A DNA stretch of 61,564 nucleotides, counting the filler. It is 3 parts of 3 records of this genome, joined end to end, with 100 filler letters (N's around TTAATTAATTAA, not from the genome) between each part and the next. Parts side by side here need not be neighbours in the genome. Positions count along the whole stretch, not along the records: positions 18,429 to 42,390 come from SRR31156797_8201; 2 more parts are not named here. One strand, written 5' to 3'. Below the pieces are notes generated by a model. The model was not told where the DNA came from and did no database searches. It was given only the letters and a program-made list of their open reading frames with translations. The position numbers and the translations under genes were made by a program. Shown one piece after another: positions 16,163 to 26,960 of the stretch. Position 1 is the stretch's first letter. Each line of letters begins with the position of its first letter.

Positions 16163-18328
16163 CTAGGAAATATTCAAGGGGATTTCTCCGTTTTCAGACA
16201 CATGGACCAGATAATGGGGTGAAAGGGCATAGCTGTCTTCGGTCCGGACATTCGGATTGACGCTCTTGAGGCAAAAAAGCACGCCTGGGTGCATTTCATT
16301 TTCCAGCAGAGTGTCTCCATCGGTTACCGAAAAGGCGCCAGGCGCCATTTGATCCAGCCTTTCCTGGAATTCCTTCATGTAATTGGATAAATCCATACGA
16401 AAATCATTGAGCGTCAGATCGGTTATGGAGATGCCGCTACCCAGGTCTTCAATGTCCACCACTTCATTTTGGAGCCGCTCCAGTTGCCTGCGGCGGTATT
16501 CCAGATCGTTCATTTTCCCGGCATCGGAAAATTCAATGATGTTTTCCTCGCCCGTGGCGGAAATATCCAACAGAACCATCCGCCCGGAAACCCTGGCTTC
16601 CAGATTGATGTATTCGTCAAGTTCCATGCTGGGCCAGAAATTGACCAGTTGAATGGTGGTGTTGATCGATCCCAGCCGGTCAATGCGGCCGAAGCGCTGG
16701 ATGATCCTGACGGGGTTCCAGTGGATATCGTAATTAACCAGGTAATCGCAGTCCTGAAGATTCTGGCCTTCGGAAATACAGTCCGTCGCAATGAGGATAT
16801 CGATTTCTTCCACAAGGGAGGGATCAACCTTTTTCCGTTCCTTGGATATGGGTGAAAAGGACGTGATGATGGATGCCATATCCTTTCGGATACCCTTTAG
16901 GGTGGTCTTGTTGGCGCCCGTGCCACCGGTGACCATGGCCGCGTGCAATCCAAGATTTTGCCGCGCCCATTCGGCCAAATGGGTGTATAGGTATTCAGCG
17001 GTTTGCGCGAAGGCTGTAAACACGATCACCTTCCGGTTGCCGGGATTTTGGGGAGATGTTGCTTTATCCGAAATGATTTCCTTGAGCCTGCGGAGTTTTT
17101 TATCCCTTGCAGGCGTTACGTCACGGGCCTGGTGCAGCATTTTAACCAGCCGATCCTCATCCTCTTTCAATTCCTGTTTCAACCGGATACGGTCCACATC
17201 CTGGATCAGCACCTTGATTTTATTACCGATGAGGAAAGGCTCCAATTCTTCAGAATCGATTTCAACCTCTTCAATGTTCAATTCCTCAAGGTCCATGTCC
17301 TCATGGGAATCAATTCGGGTGATGATGTGTTGCACACCCTGAAGCAATTTTTCCAGGGTCCGGGCAAAACTGCTGATGGAACTCTCCATTCGCTTGAGGA
17401 GGTTGACCCGCATCAGGTGGATCAGGCTTTCTTCACGGTCAATCTGCTTGAAAACAGAACCTCCCGCCACCTGCATATCGTATTTTCTGCTGTACTCCGT
17501 CAGTTTTTCCGCAAGCACATACTTCAAGGGCGCATACGCACTGAGGTTCAACCGCCGAATGTCCCGGTTGATTTCCTTAAGCGGTGGAAAAAGGTTTTCC
17601 GTATCGATGTCCGCCTTGGTGTTGATGGGCCTGGCCCGTTCCGGGAAATCTCCGATTTCAGCCATGTCGTAATATTTCTGGATGTGTTTCCGTGAACGGG
17701 CAATGGTGAGGAGGTCCAGGAGCTTGAAATAATCAAAATTAAGGCTTTCAAGCAAAGATTCCGTGGTCCGCCTGGCCTCGGAAAGTTTCAGCCACCGATT
17801 GAAACGGGTCTGGGCCTTCTTGAGGGTTTGTTCGATGCTGATGAGCCCCGAACCCGCCAGGGCATCATCAATGCCTTCGGTAATGAAGGCAACCTGGTTT
17901 TTTAAATCGTTCATTCGGCTGTTCACCGGGGTGGCCGACAGCATGAGAACCTTTGTCTTAACGCCTGTTTTGATAATATCCCGCATCAATCGGGAGTAGC
18001 GGGTCATTCCGTCTTTTCGGGGCGGGTTGTTTCTAAAATTGAGGGATTCGTCTATAACCACCAGATCGTAGTTGCCCCAGTTGAGGGTTTCCAGGTTCAA
18101 CTCACCGGAGTACCCTTTCAGCCGTGTGAGGTCGGTATGGTTGAGGACATCGTAGTTAAACCGGTCATCCGCGAAAAGGTTTCGCTTATCGTTGACCGTA
18201 AAAATGGTCCAGTTTTCCCGAATTTTCTTAGGGCAAAGCACCAGAGCACGATCATTTCGCAATTCGTAGTATTTAATAATGGCCAGGGCCTCAAATGTTT
18301 TTCCGAGCCCCACGCTGTCGGCCAGGAC
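16163..18328 (-). CDS. SNF2-related helicase (5' end cut by gap; probably disrupted)
   Basis: LADSVGLGKT Walker A, VVIDESLNFRN, MLSATPVN, TDCISEGQNLQD, WNPVRIIQRFGRIDRLG. Confidence 0.85.
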   Translation of the reverse strand, partial: VLADSVGLGKTFEALAIIKYYELRNDRALVLCPKKIRENWTIFTVNDKRNLFADDRFNYDVLNHTDLTRLKGYSGELNLETLNWGNYDLVVIDESLNFRNNPPRKDGMTRYSRLMRDIIKTGVKTKVLMLSATPVNSRMNDLKNQVAFITEGIDDALAGSGLISIEQTLKKAQTRFNRWLKLSEARRTTESLLESLNFDYFKLLDLLTIARSRKHIQKYYDMAEIGDFPERARPINTKADIDTENLFPPLKEINRDIRRLNLSAYAPLKYVLAEKLTEYSRKYDMQVAGGSVFKQIDREESLIHLMRVNLLKRMESSISSFARTLEKLLQGVQHIITRIDSHEDMDLEELNIEEVEIDSEELEPFLIGNKIKVLIQDVDRIRLKQELKEDEDRLVKMLHQARDVTPARDKKLRRLKEIISDKATSPQNPGNRKVIVFTAFAQTAEYLYTHLAEWARQNLGLHAAMVTGGTGANKTTLKGIRKDMASIITSFSPISKERKKVDPSLVEEIDILIATDCISEGQNLQDCDYLVNYDIHWNPVRIIQRFGRIDRLGSINTTIQLVNFWPSMELDEYINLEARVSGRMVLLDISATGEENIIEFSDAGKMNDLEYRRRQLERLQNEVVDIEDLGSGISITDLTLNDFRMDLSNYMKEFQERLDQMAPGAFSVTDGDTLLENEMHPGVLFCLKSVNPNVRTEDSYALSPHYLVHVSENGEIPLNIS

Positions 18329-18428
18329 NNNNNNNNNNNNNNNNNNNNNNNNNNNNNNNNNNNNNNNNNNNNTTAATTAATTAANNNNNNNNNNNNNNNN
18401 NNNNNNNNNNNNNNNNNNNNNNNNNNNN
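18329..18428. other. Artificial contig linker N44-TTAATTAATTAA-N44
   Basis: 100 nt with an all-frame stop 12-mer at 18373-18384; abrupt change in composition and gene type across it. Confidence 0.97.
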
Positions 18429-18532
18429 CAACTTGATAAAGCAACAAAAACAATAAACTCTAGGCGGTTTTGATAAGGCGGTGGTTGTAGATCACTCACT
18501 AATTTCAACAAGATCGTCACATCAAACTAAAA

Positions 18533-18895
18533 ATGAAAGAAAAATTTTACCAACGAAAAGGATTCCTTCCTACCCTATTTACAACTGTATTAATTATCAC
18601 AGTTGCTGTAATAACTGATCACTACAAAACACTTTTTGTACACGAAACTGGGAACATTAAAATCTTTGGAGGTTTAGGAATATTATTGGCTTTCGGGCTT
18701 TTATTAAGATGGAAGTACGTAAGGCAAATTTTAGGTGTATTTTCGCTTATAGCAACCACTGGAATAACATTTCATATTTTTAATGTTGACAAAGAATTTA
18801 TCTTATCTACATTCATTTTATTAGGAGGATTAATATTGATCTCTTATTTTTTGATTGTCTCAAAATCAATTAAATCTTATATCGGAGGGAAATGA
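18533..18895 (+). CDS. Small integral membrane hypothetical protein (~4 TM)
   Basis: 120-aa ORF with four hydrophobic segments; AT-rich. Confidence 0.7.
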   Translation: MKEKFYQRKGFLPTLFTTVLIITVAVITDHYKTLFVHETGNIKIFGGLGILLAFGLLLRWKYVRQILGVFSLIATTGITFHIFNVDKEFILSTFILLGGLILISYFLIVSKSIKSYIGGK

Positions 18896-18935
18896 TATTT
18901 CAATTTAATTCATCATTGCTAGCAACAAATTACAC

Positions 18936-19208
18936 ATGAAAAATTGGCTTATATCAATATTATTAGGAGTAATTACCCTTTTATTTAATTCATATTTAGA
19001 ATATCAAATTGAACAGGCTTACAAATCAATTGGAGAATTAAGAATGATTGTAGATTTTGGCTACAGTGCGATAAATGAAACAATCCTAATTATATTGATG
19101 GTGTTATCTTTAATTTTCTCCTTACTATCCATTTTATGGAAAAAAGAAAAACTTGGATTTGTTGGTCTAAGTTTATTTGTACTAAATACGTTTTTGTACC
19201 TATTCTAA
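18936..19208 (+). CDS. Small membrane hypothetical protein (~3 TM)
   Basis: 90-aa hydrophobic ORF, co-directional with the previous one. Confidence 0.6.
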   Translation: MKNWLISILLGVITLLFNSYLEYQIEQAYKSIGELRMIVDFGYSAINETILIILMVLSLIFSLLSILWKKEKLGFVGLSLFVLNTFLYLF

Positions 19209-19234
19209 TTCTTTTTTAACACCCATAAGTTCTG

Positions 19235-19501
19235 CTTCCGTGACAGCAGATACCCCTTCCGAGACAAGAGAAAGTTCTTCCGTGACAAGCACCTAGCCTT
19301 CCGTGACATCAGTTTGGTCTTCCGTGATAAGGGGTTAGCCTTTCCGTGACAGAGGTTTCTTCTTCCGTGACATACGGAAAGACAAATTTGTGTCACGGAA
19401 GTTCACAAGTCGGTAGCGGAAATGATCCCAGATGTAACTGATGAAGGGAAATTTGTCACGGAACAAGTTTCAACAGATGCAGAAAGGCTAACTCTTATTA
19501 C
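19235..19501. repeat. 21-bp-period repeat array (core CTTCCGTGACA) in two inverted arms
   Basis: Direct cores at 19235, 19256, 19277, 19298, 19319, 19341, 19362. Inverted cores at 19370 (partial), 19391, 19412, 19433, 19454, with weaker phase continuing to ~19501. Spacers ~10 nt and variable. Confidence 0.9.
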
Positions 19502-19507
19502 AAACAA

Positions 19508-19987
19508 TCAACTATTTCGCAAAGCATTCCTCGAAGCACGATCCACCAAAGTAAAAAAGCGATCGATACCATCTTTATCAAGGGACCTTTTGTGTCCTTT
19601 AATCTTCACAAAGCTGCATTGTATCCTATCGGTAAGTTTGTAGAATTCCTGATACAATTGCGCATTGGCAATTTGTTTGCCATTCTTCGAGATGTAATTG
19701 TTTTTCTCAAATCGCATACGCCTGCCAGGCAAGCCAATGATATTCTGGGAATCGGTGTAAACAATTACCTCACCCGCGACTGCATCCAACTTAGCAAGAG
19801 TCCACAAAAGCGTTTGCAATTCGAGCTTAGACGAAGAAGTGTTTTCAAATCGAACTGTTTCCACTAATTCCTTTGCCTCAGGTAATGAAATATCCAGATC
19901 AGAAATCAACAGAAAAGCCCCGAAACCAACTTTCGATTGCGGATTTACACTGCCATCGGTAAACAGATGGTATTTAGCAGACATCAT
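19508..19987 (-). CDS. rnhA: Ribonuclease HI
   Basis: LFTDGS, SSKLELQ, VYTDSQ, KIKGH, VDRAS: the D-E-D-D pattern of RNase H. Confidence 0.8.
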   Translation of the reverse strand: MMSAKYHLFTDGSVNPQSKVGFGAFLLISDLDISLPEAKELVETVRFENTSSSKLELQTLLWTLAKLDAVAGEVIVYTDSQNIIGLPGRRMRFEKNNYISKNGKQIANAQLYQEFYKLTDRIQCSFVKIKGHKRSLDKDGIDRFFTLVDRASRNALRNS

Positions 19988-20741
19988 CCTTTTTTAATCC
20001 CTTCGGATATTCAATCTCAGCCAAGAACAAAGCATGTCCCGGAACCGATGAACCTGCATTCGAACGATTTTTACTTTCAATCACCTGACGAAACTCATCA
20101 AGATTCATTTTTCCTCGCCCTACTTCCACCAAAGTTCCCACTATAGCTCGAACCATATTGCGAAGAAAACGATCCGCTTTCACTACAAACACCAACTCAT
20201 CTCCCTTATCTTCCCAAATGGCTTGATAAATTTTGCAATTGTTGGTTTTCACATCGGTATGCAGTTTACTAAAGCTGGTAAAATCTTCGAACTCAAAAAG
20301 GATCTTAGCCGCTTCGTTCATCTTTTCCACATCCAACTCGTAAGGAATTTTCCAGTGCGATTCCTTTCTAAAAGGATTCTTCTCTTTGGTAATTAAATAA
20401 TGATAGGTTCGCGAAATAGGATCGAAACGAGCGTGAGCATCATCCTTCACTTGAAACGTTTGTTTAATGGCAATATCATGCGGAAGAAAACGATTCAAAC
20501 GAAAGCTCAATTTCTCACAATCAATTTGCAGTTCTTGCTCTACATCAAAATGAGCATAAAAGTCGCTGGCATGCACGCCGGTATCGGTTCTACCACAGCC
20601 CACCACATTAATCTCACAATTTAAAATGGTAGACAATGCCTTGTTTAAAACCTCCTGCACACTAATAGCGTTGGGCTGTATTTGCCATCCATGGTAATTC
20701 GTGCCCTTATAACTTAACCTGATAAAATATCGCTTGTTCAA
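19974..20741 (-). CDS. truA: tRNA pseudouridine(38-40) synthase
   Basis: YKGTNYHGWQIQP, GRTDTGVHA, HARFD, FLRNMVRAIVG. Confidence 0.95.
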   Translation of the reverse strand: MNKRYFIRLSYKGTNYHGWQIQPNAISVQEVLNKALSTILNCEINVVGCGRTDTGVHASDFYAHFDVEQELQIDCEKLSFRLNRFLPHDIAIKQTFQVKDDAHARFDPISRTYHYLITKEKNPFRKESHWKIPYELDVEKMNEAAKILFEFEDFTSFSKLHTDVKTNNCKIYQAIWEDKGDELVFVVKADRFLRNMVRAIVGTLVEVGRGKMNLDEFRQVIESKNRSNAGSSVPGHALFLAEIEYPKGLKKDDVC

Positions 20742-20767
20742 ATCCTAATCGTTTTCTAAATTCTCCA

Positions 20768-20775
20768 CAAAAATA
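20768..20775 (-). promoter_or_regulatory. Bacteroidota -7 promoter element (TAttTTTG) for truA
   Basis: Exact match to the TAnnTTTG consensus upstream of truA. Confidence 0.55.
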
Positions 20776-20993
20776 CACAATTTAATAAATGTACAACCGT
20801 ACGGATGCAAGTTCATTCATTTCTACTCAAACTAACAAAACTATGAACCGTACGAACGTAAGATCTTACGTACCTACCATATTTTGTACATGGAACACTC
20901 TTTTACTTGGAGCTTGTAGCTTGATCACTTGTGGCTTTAATCAGTCTTAACACTTTTTAACGGCGCTGCACTTTCATAAAAGCATCAAAAATT

Positions 20994-26177: not shown

Positions 26178-26960
26178 ATGAAAAAATATATAATACTGTT
26201 CATGAGCATGATTTGTCTTCTAAGTGTGGAGGCTAATGCCCAAAAAGAGAGAAAATTTATTCGTTCCGGAAATGACCTTTTCGAAGGAGATAAATTTGAA
26301 AACTCAGAAGTGGAATACCGTAAGGCTTTGGATAAAAAAGTAAATTCTTACGAAGCTGGCTTCAATTTAGGCGATGCTTTGTACAAGCAGAAAAAATACG
26401 ATGAAGCTTTAAAACAATTTCAGGCTTTGGCTCTTACCGAAAAAGACAATCAGAAACTGGGGCATCTTTATCACAATATGGGTAACACCTTATTGGAAAA
26501 TAAAAAAATTGATGAAAGTATAGAGGCATACAAGCAGTCGCTTCGTTATTTCCCTGATTCGAAGGAAACCAAATACAATTTGGAATACGCTCGCCAAATG
26601 AAGAAAAAACAGGAAGAGCAACAGAAAAAAGACCAACAAAACAAGGATCAGAACAAAGATCAAGACAAGAAGGATCAGGATAAAAAAGACCAAGACAAGA
26701 AAGATCAAGACAAAAAGGATCAGAATAAAAAGAAAGACCAGAAAGATAAAGACAAGCAGAAGCAAAATCAGAAAGACAAACAAGGCGATCAGGATAAAAA
26801 GAAACAAGATCAGCAACAGCAAAATAAGATTTCGAAACAAGACGCTCAACGTTTGCTAGAAGCATTGGAAAACGACGAGAAGAAAGTTCAGGAGAAGGTT
26901 CAGAAGGCAAAAGCGAAAACGCAAAAAGCCAAGAAAACCAAAATCAAAAAGGATTGGTAA
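26178..26960 (+). CDS. batC: BatC TPR protein with KDQDK low-complexity tract
   Basis: TPR motifs (YRKAL, FNLGDALY, YHNMGN), Q/D/K-rich tract, C-terminal KDW. Confidence 0.9.
   Translation: MKKYIILFMSMICLLSVEANAQKERKFIRSGNDLFEGDKFENSEVEYRKALDKKVNSYEAGFNLGDALYKQKKYDEALKQFQALALTEKDNQKLGHLYHNMGNTLLENKKIDESIEAYKQSLRYFPDSKETKYNLEYARQMKKKQEEQQKKDQQNKDQNKDQDKKDQDKKDQDKKDQDKKDQNKKKDQKDKDKQKQNQKDKQGDQDKKKQDQQQQNKISKQDAQRLLEALENDEKKVQEKVQKAKAKTQKAKKTKIKKDW

Follow-up and report, generated by a model that had tools for sequence, protein, structure and literature searches.

The stretch of DNA analysed here, hereafter the window, comprises 61,564 nucleotides (filler included) of concatenated draft sequence, in which a phased repeat array with a 21-nt period fills the gap between two small open reading frames (ORFs) and the convergent rnhA-truA genes (Table 1), as an earlier note on this DNA had reported. 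The DNA to the left of position 18430 is joined to this locus through a run of N with a central TTAATTAATTAA, a six-frame-stop contig linker, and the SNF2-type gene situated there is therefore no true neighbour of the array; this helicase ORF (16163-18313, minus strand) is cut at the contig end.

Seven direct copies of an 11-nt core (CTTCCGTGACA) start at 19235, 19256, 19277, 19298, 19319, 19341 and 19362, and the measured core steps of 21, 21, 21, 21, 22 and 21 nt agree with the previously claimed period of 21 with a single 22. The sequence TTCCGTGAC is exact at 19236, 19278, 19299, 19342 and 19363 and carries one mismatch at 19257 and 19320, while Tandem Repeats Finder returns a period of 21 over 19235-19372. 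Across the whole window 24 core matches with at most one mismatch are found, compared with 10.4 ± 3.4 in 100 shuffled sequences, none of which reached 24, and nine of the 24 fall within 19236-19463. The boxes of the array are of the CCGTGACAT type, and the array module starts with an AAGTT box, AACACCCATAAGTT, followed by CTG. At the pivot the orientation flips through a small hairpin, as had been proposed, with the dyad arms TTCCGT (19363-19368) and ACGGAA (19374-19379) separated by GACAT. Inverted cores decaying at 21-nt steps had likewise been noted beyond this point, and a strict 21-nt register is indeed kept by the ACGGAA-type hexamers of the right arm (19374, 19395, 19416, 19437, 19458, 19479 and 19500; 6/6, 6/6, 5/6, 3/6, 6/6, 4/6 and 3/6 positions identical to ACGGAA, respectively), while only two exact or full inverted cores are present, at 19392-19400 and 19455-19463.

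Table 1. Coordinates of the array and of the surrounding features in the window.
Feature	Position	Strand	Basis or remark
Left junction, from the stop of the 90-aa ORF to the first core	19209..19234	+	Reads TTCTTTTTTAACACCCATAAGTT, then CTG
Left arm of seven direct units, each CTTCCGTGACA with a semi-conserved half of 10-11 nt	19235..19372	+	Sequence, Tandem Repeats Finder
Dyad (pivot), TTCCGT-GACAT-ACGGAA	19363..19379	.	TTCCGTGACATACGGAA in seven G001 copies, TTCCGTGACAAACGGAA in subfamily 2
Right arm, inverted ACGGAA-type half cores, decaying outward	19374..19505	+	21-nt register, ends GATGCAGAAAGGCTAAC
Cassette-repeat copy (~115 nt, hairpin-forming), cut by the contig start	18429..18529	+	Between 143-aa and 120-aa ORFs in G421
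Two small AT-rich membrane-type ORFs, 120 aa (18533-18895) and 90 aa (18936-19208)	18533..19208	+	No Pfam family
rnhA (RNase H), converging on the array; neighbour only, outside the element	19508..19987	-	ORF/domain search
N run with central TTAATTAATTAA, contig-joining linker	18329..18429	.	Sequence

Distribution and turnover of the array family

The array module is multi-copy and intergenic, and is common to several genera with homologous units. Its grammar runs from a leader through n units and a dyad to a decayed inverted arm, and is repeated at nine loci in Marinifilum sp. RC60d5 (G001), at two loci each in genomes G418 and G421 and at one locus in G439, with G421 serving as a stand-in for the window's own genome. 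All copies examined are situated between called ORFs, at unrelated loci. Leader, dyad and tail are common to the array copies. Those of G001, which hold two to twelve units per locus (one copy has collapsed to two units), share a leader ending in AAGTTATTTTAGGAGAAGTCA, the dyad TTCCGTGACATACGGAA, one inverted core 28 nt further on and a tail of ~110 nt, which aligns with the right arm of the window array in the 21-nt register and is homologous to it (tail end GATACGGAAAGCCTRCC, compared with GATGCAGAAAGGCTAAC in the window). In a second subfamily (locus L152 in G418 and L049 in G001) the dyad reads TTCCGTGACAAACGGAAG, and the phased AACGGAA half cores number six to seven. At one locus shared between G001 and G418 the arms differ, with 12 units and one inverted core in the former and eight units and four inverted cores in the latter, where the leader is on the opposite side. 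The window array represents one copy of a dispersed non-coding 'fold-back minisatellite' module of Marinifilum-type Bacteroidales; taken together with a mechanism based on phased protein sites, this reading falls somewhat short of an even chance.

The spacers between the cores had been described as all different, which holds for the six within the window array, but they do not vary freely and have homologues among the spacers of other genomes, from which they differ by a summed edit distance of 16, compared with 27.3 ± 2.2 after shuffling (0/2000 shuffles as good), and the last window spacer, GAGGTTTCTT, is identical to the last spacer of a G001 array; the units are therefore homologous between genera, the rnhA-truA DNA of which is 71-75% identical. 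RNase H is located beside an array only in the window and G421, while rnhA-truA occurs without an array in G418 and G439, and the array nearest to rnhA in G001 lies at ~4.5 kb. The window copy and the G001 copy between a Porph_ging gene and rnhA agree in neighbourhood and orientation, and the sequence just after the dyad is alike. The two copies may be orthologous, but G418 has the same gene order without an array and the remainder is unalignable. At locus L125 (1000-1500; G001:C9), the leader end AAGTTATTTTAGGAGAAGTCA (21 nt) is present on both sides of an insert of ~415 nt, which carries a C-terminal fragment of an rve-type (IS3-like) transposase.

Whole units are gained or lost between closely related strains. 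Over 18430-20800 the window and G421 share 96% identity, and the G421 array equals that of the window less exactly unit 1, plus one single nucleotide polymorphism (SNP). One metagenome contig of run X2 extends across the whole 1.8-kb stretch and shows the same 21-nt deletion of unit 1, while in a contig of run X5 unit 3 (19277) is gone and 33 nt are added near 19319-19327, by unit 5. Three array alleles are thus found in four strains (window, G421, X2 and X5), and with so rapid a unit turnover the array can serve to mark strains. G421, run X2, run X5 (a contig across 19319-19573) and seven G001 loci with different flanks have the dyad in common; the assembly fold-back or chimera at 19371 that had been considered, an artefact of a kind which can arise from inverted repeats, is thereby refuted by independent contigs crossing the dyad, and its probability is negligible. 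Just five SNPs separate the window from G421 over 18430-19630. Low divergence was considered as the mark of a mobile segment and discarded, as SNP density is low across the neighbourhood as a whole, rnhA-truA (19630-20730) being the unusually divergent part. The latter segment, comprising the 5′ part of rnhA and truA, shows 78 SNPs in 1100 nt relative to G421, with both flanks below 1%, and is likely a recombination import.

In a family-level sample, a two-core pattern matched six of 61 genomes, four of them with arrays (53 matches in G001, 19 in G418 and three each in G421 and G439), while a reversed-pattern control gave none. Across the order, the dyad pattern was found in 9/401 genomes, with several matches (eight) in G001 only; the eight genomes with single matches correspond to the control level (nine genomes for the reversed pattern). 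Cores spaced 20-22 nt apart occur at at least 120 loci in many phyla when one genome per species is scanned, where ~50 would be expected by chance on our own estimate (18 fixed bases in 596 Gb), and most of these loci are single matches of chance order or uniform tandem repeats in other phyla. The arrays of Verrucomicrobia, Myxococcota, spirochaetes and others, being uniform-unit tandem repeats without a dyad, were treated as unrelated. A metagenome scan for three cores returned 33 loci in approximately ten families, among them the Marinifilum-like L198, L217, L221 and L224, while most of the other three-core loci are unrelated (11-nt satellites, high-GC clusters and others). Two gut Prevotella-like families display the same grammar of direct units and a terminal inverted half-core and adjoin unrelated housekeeping genes (L199, L201, L202, L206, L209, L213, L225, L229; L207, L210, L211, L222, L227; further loci: L028, L045, L081, L011, L003). 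In these gut Prevotella-like genomes the dispersed 21-nt arrays have the TTCCGTGACA core and end in a TTCCGTGTCACGGAA palindrome, and one of the two families adjoins four or five TTATCCA/TGGATAA boxes and an AT-rich stretch. A literature search on Marinifilum repeats returned, among the matches listed and in the text available for them, no paper that appeared to deal with the element.

Cassette and recombinase context

In the window the array closes a three-ORF cassette-like cluster, comprising the 120-aa and 90-aa ORFs and a 143-aa ORF seen in G421, with the ORFs separated by a repeat of ~115 nt. G421 has this repeat in 14 or more places, and it recurs in G001 with 86% identity. On contig G421:C15 it is located between four to five small co-directional ORFs, one of them a member of the SUKH-1 immunity family, and it has the appearance of a cassette repeat belonging to an integron/rAID-like system. 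Copies were placed at 18429-18529 of the window, L179 1467-1600, L230 3841-3956, 4659-4775, 5230-5325 and 5882-5986, and L019 2207-2325. Three stems are possible in its fold. An identity with classical attC was rejected, given that compensatory changes are found in 0/25 pairs and the GTT/AAC boxes stand in the opposite order. The AAC...AAGTT box of the left array junction appears to resemble both the beginning of the cassette repeat (AACAAAAGTT) and the AAGTT from which the G001 array module sets out, as far as such short motifs can suggest. The boundaries of the module are likewise marked by short motifs, namely AAGTT on the left in both G001 leader types and the window, and the cassette site on the right in five of the nine G001 copies; an excision product was not observed.

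These five G001 arrays occupy the 3′, non-coding part of cassettes that belong to a tyrosine-recombinase system of integron/rAID-like type. Each is followed by a 378-nt module ending in GGTTACTGAATAGTT, and the same GGTTACTGAATAGTT is also found directly after the stop codon of a tyrosine recombinase gene (481-548 aa) in G001 and G418 (L235 871-2405, G001:C9; L233 670-2405, G418:C1). The encoded recombinase contains Phage_integrase and SAM-like domains, and its TIGR02249 scores (115 and 92 bits) are below the integron-integrase (IntI) cut-off of 265. At each of 12 junctions ending in GGTTACTGAATAGTT (L019, L192, L193 and L129) the sequence diverges right after GTT, and in 11 of these an ORF of at least 60 aa begins 22-105 nt beyond. 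The cargo at 100-141 kb of G001 contig C1 includes defence genes (SMODS with S_4TM, Fic, a reverse transcriptase and AbiGi) as well as DUF4062 and Bro-N. The genomes, as distinct from the window locus, thus present a tyrosine recombinase with a conserved site after it, together with co-directional cassettes, the arrangement that marks integron and rAID systems, and the array itself may be cassette cargo.

Integron-like cassette arrays of Bacteroidales have been described as rAID-1 (Ross et al., bioRxiv 10.1101/471110). Going by the available part of that description, the shared features include a XerD-type tyrosine recombinase, co-directional small low-GC ORFs (one of them SUKH-1) and repetitive intergenic sequences. 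By the same source, the present system differs from rAID-1 in that the phased array is not the cassette repeat and the window cluster is without an adjacent recombinase.

Core conservation and candidate functions

The relative constraint on cores and spacers was assessed in 77 units from 11 arrays, of which 45 are distinct. Sixty of the 77 units are 21 nt and 17 are 22 nt in length, with none outside this range. In the distinct units, positions 2-11 (TTCCGTGACA) show five deviations in 450 cells, a figure favoured by the requirement of the unit list for a core with at most two mismatches, while positions 12-21 are mixed, with weak preferences; no units were skipped in the left arms despite this filter. 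The mean unit step is 21.2 bp, corresponding to two turns of B-DNA, which would place the cores on one face of the helix. The exact 10-mer is located in or next to arrays in 65/67 cases in G001, 23/23 in G418, 8/10 in G421 and 4/6 in G439, and since it is almost confined to arrays, a host regulon with single 10-mer sites is unlikely.

A functionless, selfish or neutral minisatellite, persisting and varying solely through slippage, unequal exchange and gene conversion, with the uniform core a by-product of unit copying, appears rather unlikely. It would be consistent with the whole-unit gain and loss between near-identical strains, the few spacer types shuffled among the G001 copies, the copy collapsed to two units, the free decay of the right arm and the lack of an associated gene among the scanned neighbours. 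Minisatellite repeats of such a kind are moreover known in the same order from BrickBuilt of Porphyromonas gingivalis (Klein et al. 2015, PMC4596501), as far as the available text of that paper goes. Homogenisation should, however, affect whole units, yet ten positions are near-invariant while the other 10-11 differ across loci and genera, and the unit length stays at 21-22. Neutral copying therefore accounts for the turnover but not for the contrast between core and spacer.

On the pattern of conservation, the most likely explanation, held with reservation, is that of helically phased, putative protein-binding sites on a hitch-hiking repeat. The module opens with a short leader that closes on an AAGTT box, continues with 21/22-bp units in variable number and a dyad, and is completed by an older, outward-decaying inverted arm, each unit combining a near-invariant TTCCGTGACA with a drifting 10-11-bp half. 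The core would be kept by selection as a sequence-specific DNA site and, with all sites on one helix face at a mean step of 21.2 bp (two turns), a trans-acting protein could cover the array in a cooperative manner, the dyad serving as a dimer site. Changes in unit number would arise by replication slippage or unequal exchange, and the module may spread as a hitch-hiker of cassettes and other small repeat modules, not by means of its own transposase. The phased protein-binding or recombination array put forward in the earlier note thus remains the best mechanistic reading, since the 10-nt core is invariant, the length is constrained to 21/22 nt and the motif is almost absent outside arrays, while the binder that it calls for was not found.

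Several observations count against the protein-site explanation. Among the 36 ORFs scanned of the 67 within 4.5 kb of the arrays, no DNA-binding, transposase or other family recurs, and no binder was found there. The filter of the unit list leans towards conserved cores, and the decay of the right-arm cores implies that any constraint is non-uniform. An ~800-nt composite form in G001 (from CCCATTGCTGG to GGTTACTGAATAGTT) is sharply bounded, with neither terminal inverted repeats nor a target duplication. The link to cassettes is based on one genome (G001) and the window, four G001 copies and those of G418 and G439 being without such context. Furthermore, the recombinase-proximal site does not contain TTCCGTGACA, and the tyrosine recombinase is thus not the evident core binder. 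Contigs from RNA libraries also cover the array, so that a role as RNA fits too.

Two individual neighbours were judged coincidental: one G418 copy adjoins an IstB (IS21) gene, and one G001 copy adjoins a fragment of a DUF772 transposase. Elsewhere in the window, an A-rich tandem repeat (AAGATCAAGACAAAA) at 26614-26755 with a 15-nt period (also 45 and 72 nt) lies inside the ORF at 26178-26960 and is probably a K/D-rich coding repeat.

Acting as RNA, the array would form the 3′ untranslated region of convergent genes or be transcribed from the leader, and base pairing between its cores and the inverted arm would yield a long, interrupted hairpin. In the manner of REP elements, this hairpin could stabilise transcripts or terminate them, or it could sponge an RNA-binding protein; we consider such a role as RNA unlikely. 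Both strands fold better than shuffled sequences (RNA z -3.4 and -3.5; DNA z -4.5; 0/200 shuffles as good in each case), the element is located between convergent genes in the window, and the 1.8-kb stretch has four records from two RNA libraries, all of them within 19138-19714. These records are, however, 151-nt contigs of depth ~3 from one study that may derive from DNA carry-over, and the cover was judged too thin to count as expression. The predicted stems are 6-11 bp in length with loops of ~10 x 10 nt between them, the helices are the cores themselves, which leaves no testable covariation, and in arrays where 10-12 left units are accompanied by one good inverted core, most units have no partner to pair with. 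Moreover, the orientation to neighbouring genes is inconsistent, and an Rfam search returned only a sub-threshold miRNA-model match in the window (23 bits, compared with a gathering score of 88) and none in a G001 copy.

A relic of a heptad-repeat (xxxxVTE) protein gene, as had been considered on the basis of VTE heptads read outward from the pivot, is very improbable. The period of 21 nt equals seven codons and the left arm is open over 63 codons on its minus strand, but the heptads are no more than GTCACGGAA read in one frame, which the 22-nt unit and a stop codon break. The 22-nt units (17/77) shift the frame in every long array, the two arms would need to be coding on opposite strands, and the copies all lie between ORFs at unrelated loci. 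In addition, no Pfam family was found in any of five ORFs drawn through the arrays. The gene relic is therefore rejected.

The miniature repeat-spacer RNA of the earlier note is not supported, and a guide-RNA array of the type of clustered regularly interspaced short palindromic repeats (CRISPR) or of the TIGR type is scarcely credible. Conserved and variable segments do alternate, and one G001 copy is found 550 nt upstream of cas9, but this is the only array locus with a cas neighbour among those scanned. CRISPR arrays are characterised by repeats of at least 23 nt, unique acquired spacers and a cas operon, a combination that the array does not show, its repeats being 11 nt and its spacers 10-11 nt, with few spacer types that are homologous between arrays and genera and not acquired. 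TIGR-Tas systems employ a Nop-domain Tas protein, whereas the Nop domain (PF01798) was found in 0/4 genomes, with the control positive in four archaea. The cas9 gene (L044 282-4451; G001:C10) encodes a 1389-aa Cas9 with RuvC_III, HNH_4 and Cas9_a domains.

Origins of theta plasmids contain 5-12 direct repeats at 21-22 bp with an inverted half-site pair, and iterons such as those of P1 incA, with direct repeats of ~21-22 bp in five to nine or more copies, likewise have inverted half-sites nearby. The array shares the direct repeats at 21-22 bp and the inverted half-sites, and could represent an orphan origin or incompatibility site, derived from or directed against a plasmid, phage or integrative element, with an initiator binding TTCCGTGACA. 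This is a distinctly improbable reading, in spite of the likeness of grammar, the position of G001 arrays in variable defence and cassette regions and the occurrence of the same core beside TTATCCA/TGGATAA boxes and an AT-rich stretch in a gut Prevotella-like family. In contrast to iterons, there is no initiator gene: Rep_3 (PF01051) was found in 0/4 genomes and no replication gene occurs among the 36 scanned neighbour ORFs. Searches for a plasmid or phage carrier gave no match in 72,556 plasmid records and merely three in viral contigs, which are unrelated high-GC or single matches. The chromosomal copies are many, up to nine in a genome, and the Prevotella copies are likewise dispersed beside unrelated genes.

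A further reading, which we regard as a long shot, is that of a protein-free cassette in an integron/rAID-like system of Bacteroidales, whose mobile row of decoy sites would soak up a sequence-specific DNA-binding protein, such as the initiator, partition protein or repressor of an invading replicon. If true, it would constitute a DNA-only defence or incompatibility cassette, collected and shuffled together with immunity and anti-phage genes.

Comparison with known systems and significance

The closest published analogue of the array family, going by the accessible part of its description, is BrickBuilt, a MITE (miniature transposable element with inverted repeats) of minisatellite type with a leader, 23-nt units and a tail. 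From that text, both are intergenic, multi-copy and of restricted host range within the same order, with a non-repetitive leader and tail around tandem units of approximately two helical turns (23 nt in BrickBuilt), a variable unit number (1 to >20), units of which one half is conserved and the other variable, and partial copies without leader or tail. The array family accordingly has dispersed copies of variable unit number, with tandem units of approximately two turns, a conserved leader (AAGTTATTTTAGGAGAAGTCA and beyond) and the ~110-nt tail. Unlike the BrickBuilt described there, it has no IS5-like terminal inverted repeats at definable boundaries, and it is set apart, in terms of that description, by the dyad, the inverted second arm, a core that is near-invariant across genera and the link to cassette junctions.

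REP, BIME and REPIN elements are also short, dispersed, intergenic, foldable and clustered in arrays. The comparison of the array with a REP/BIME-like element was apt as regards a dispersed, strain-variable repeat family, but the tests for REP and RAYT failed: the units are direct and non-palindromic, and no RAYT (Y1) gene adjoins them. Three to five Y1 transposase genes are present per genome, the nearest 3.5 kb from the G439 array, and for all other arrays no Y1 gene lies within ~56 kb or on the same contig.

In IS607-family elements, a protein filament is nucleated at the ends by several direct 9-bp motifs in helical phase (Chen et al. 2018, PMC6188088). In the portion of that paper available, these ends share with the arrays the lack of terminal inverted repeats and target duplications and the helically phased direct motifs; the IS607 motifs are spaced at ~10-11 bp with about four per end, while the array family has up to 12 units at 21-22 bp. 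Unlike IS607, no serine transposase (TnpA) is found within or beside the arrays. Serine recombinase (Resolvase) genes are distant from arrays, with none among the scanned neighbours and none in G418, which has two arrays.

The array family is real, ordinary in kind and undescribed, and is noteworthy mainly for its clean core word and cassette context. Dispersed repeats with units of ~21 bp recur in Bacteroidota, BrickBuilt being an example, and we know of no function or means of movement established for them. The present family offers a handle on such repeats, with an invariant 10-bp word that is nearly confined to arrays and a strict two-turn spacing, and in one genome its arrays are located within the non-coding part of recombinase-driven cassettes that also comprise defence and immunity genes. 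If a binder exists, the core would be usable as bait and could reveal what such arrays do in the order. If the arrays travel as cassettes, the integron-like systems of Bacteroidales would carry non-coding cargo too.

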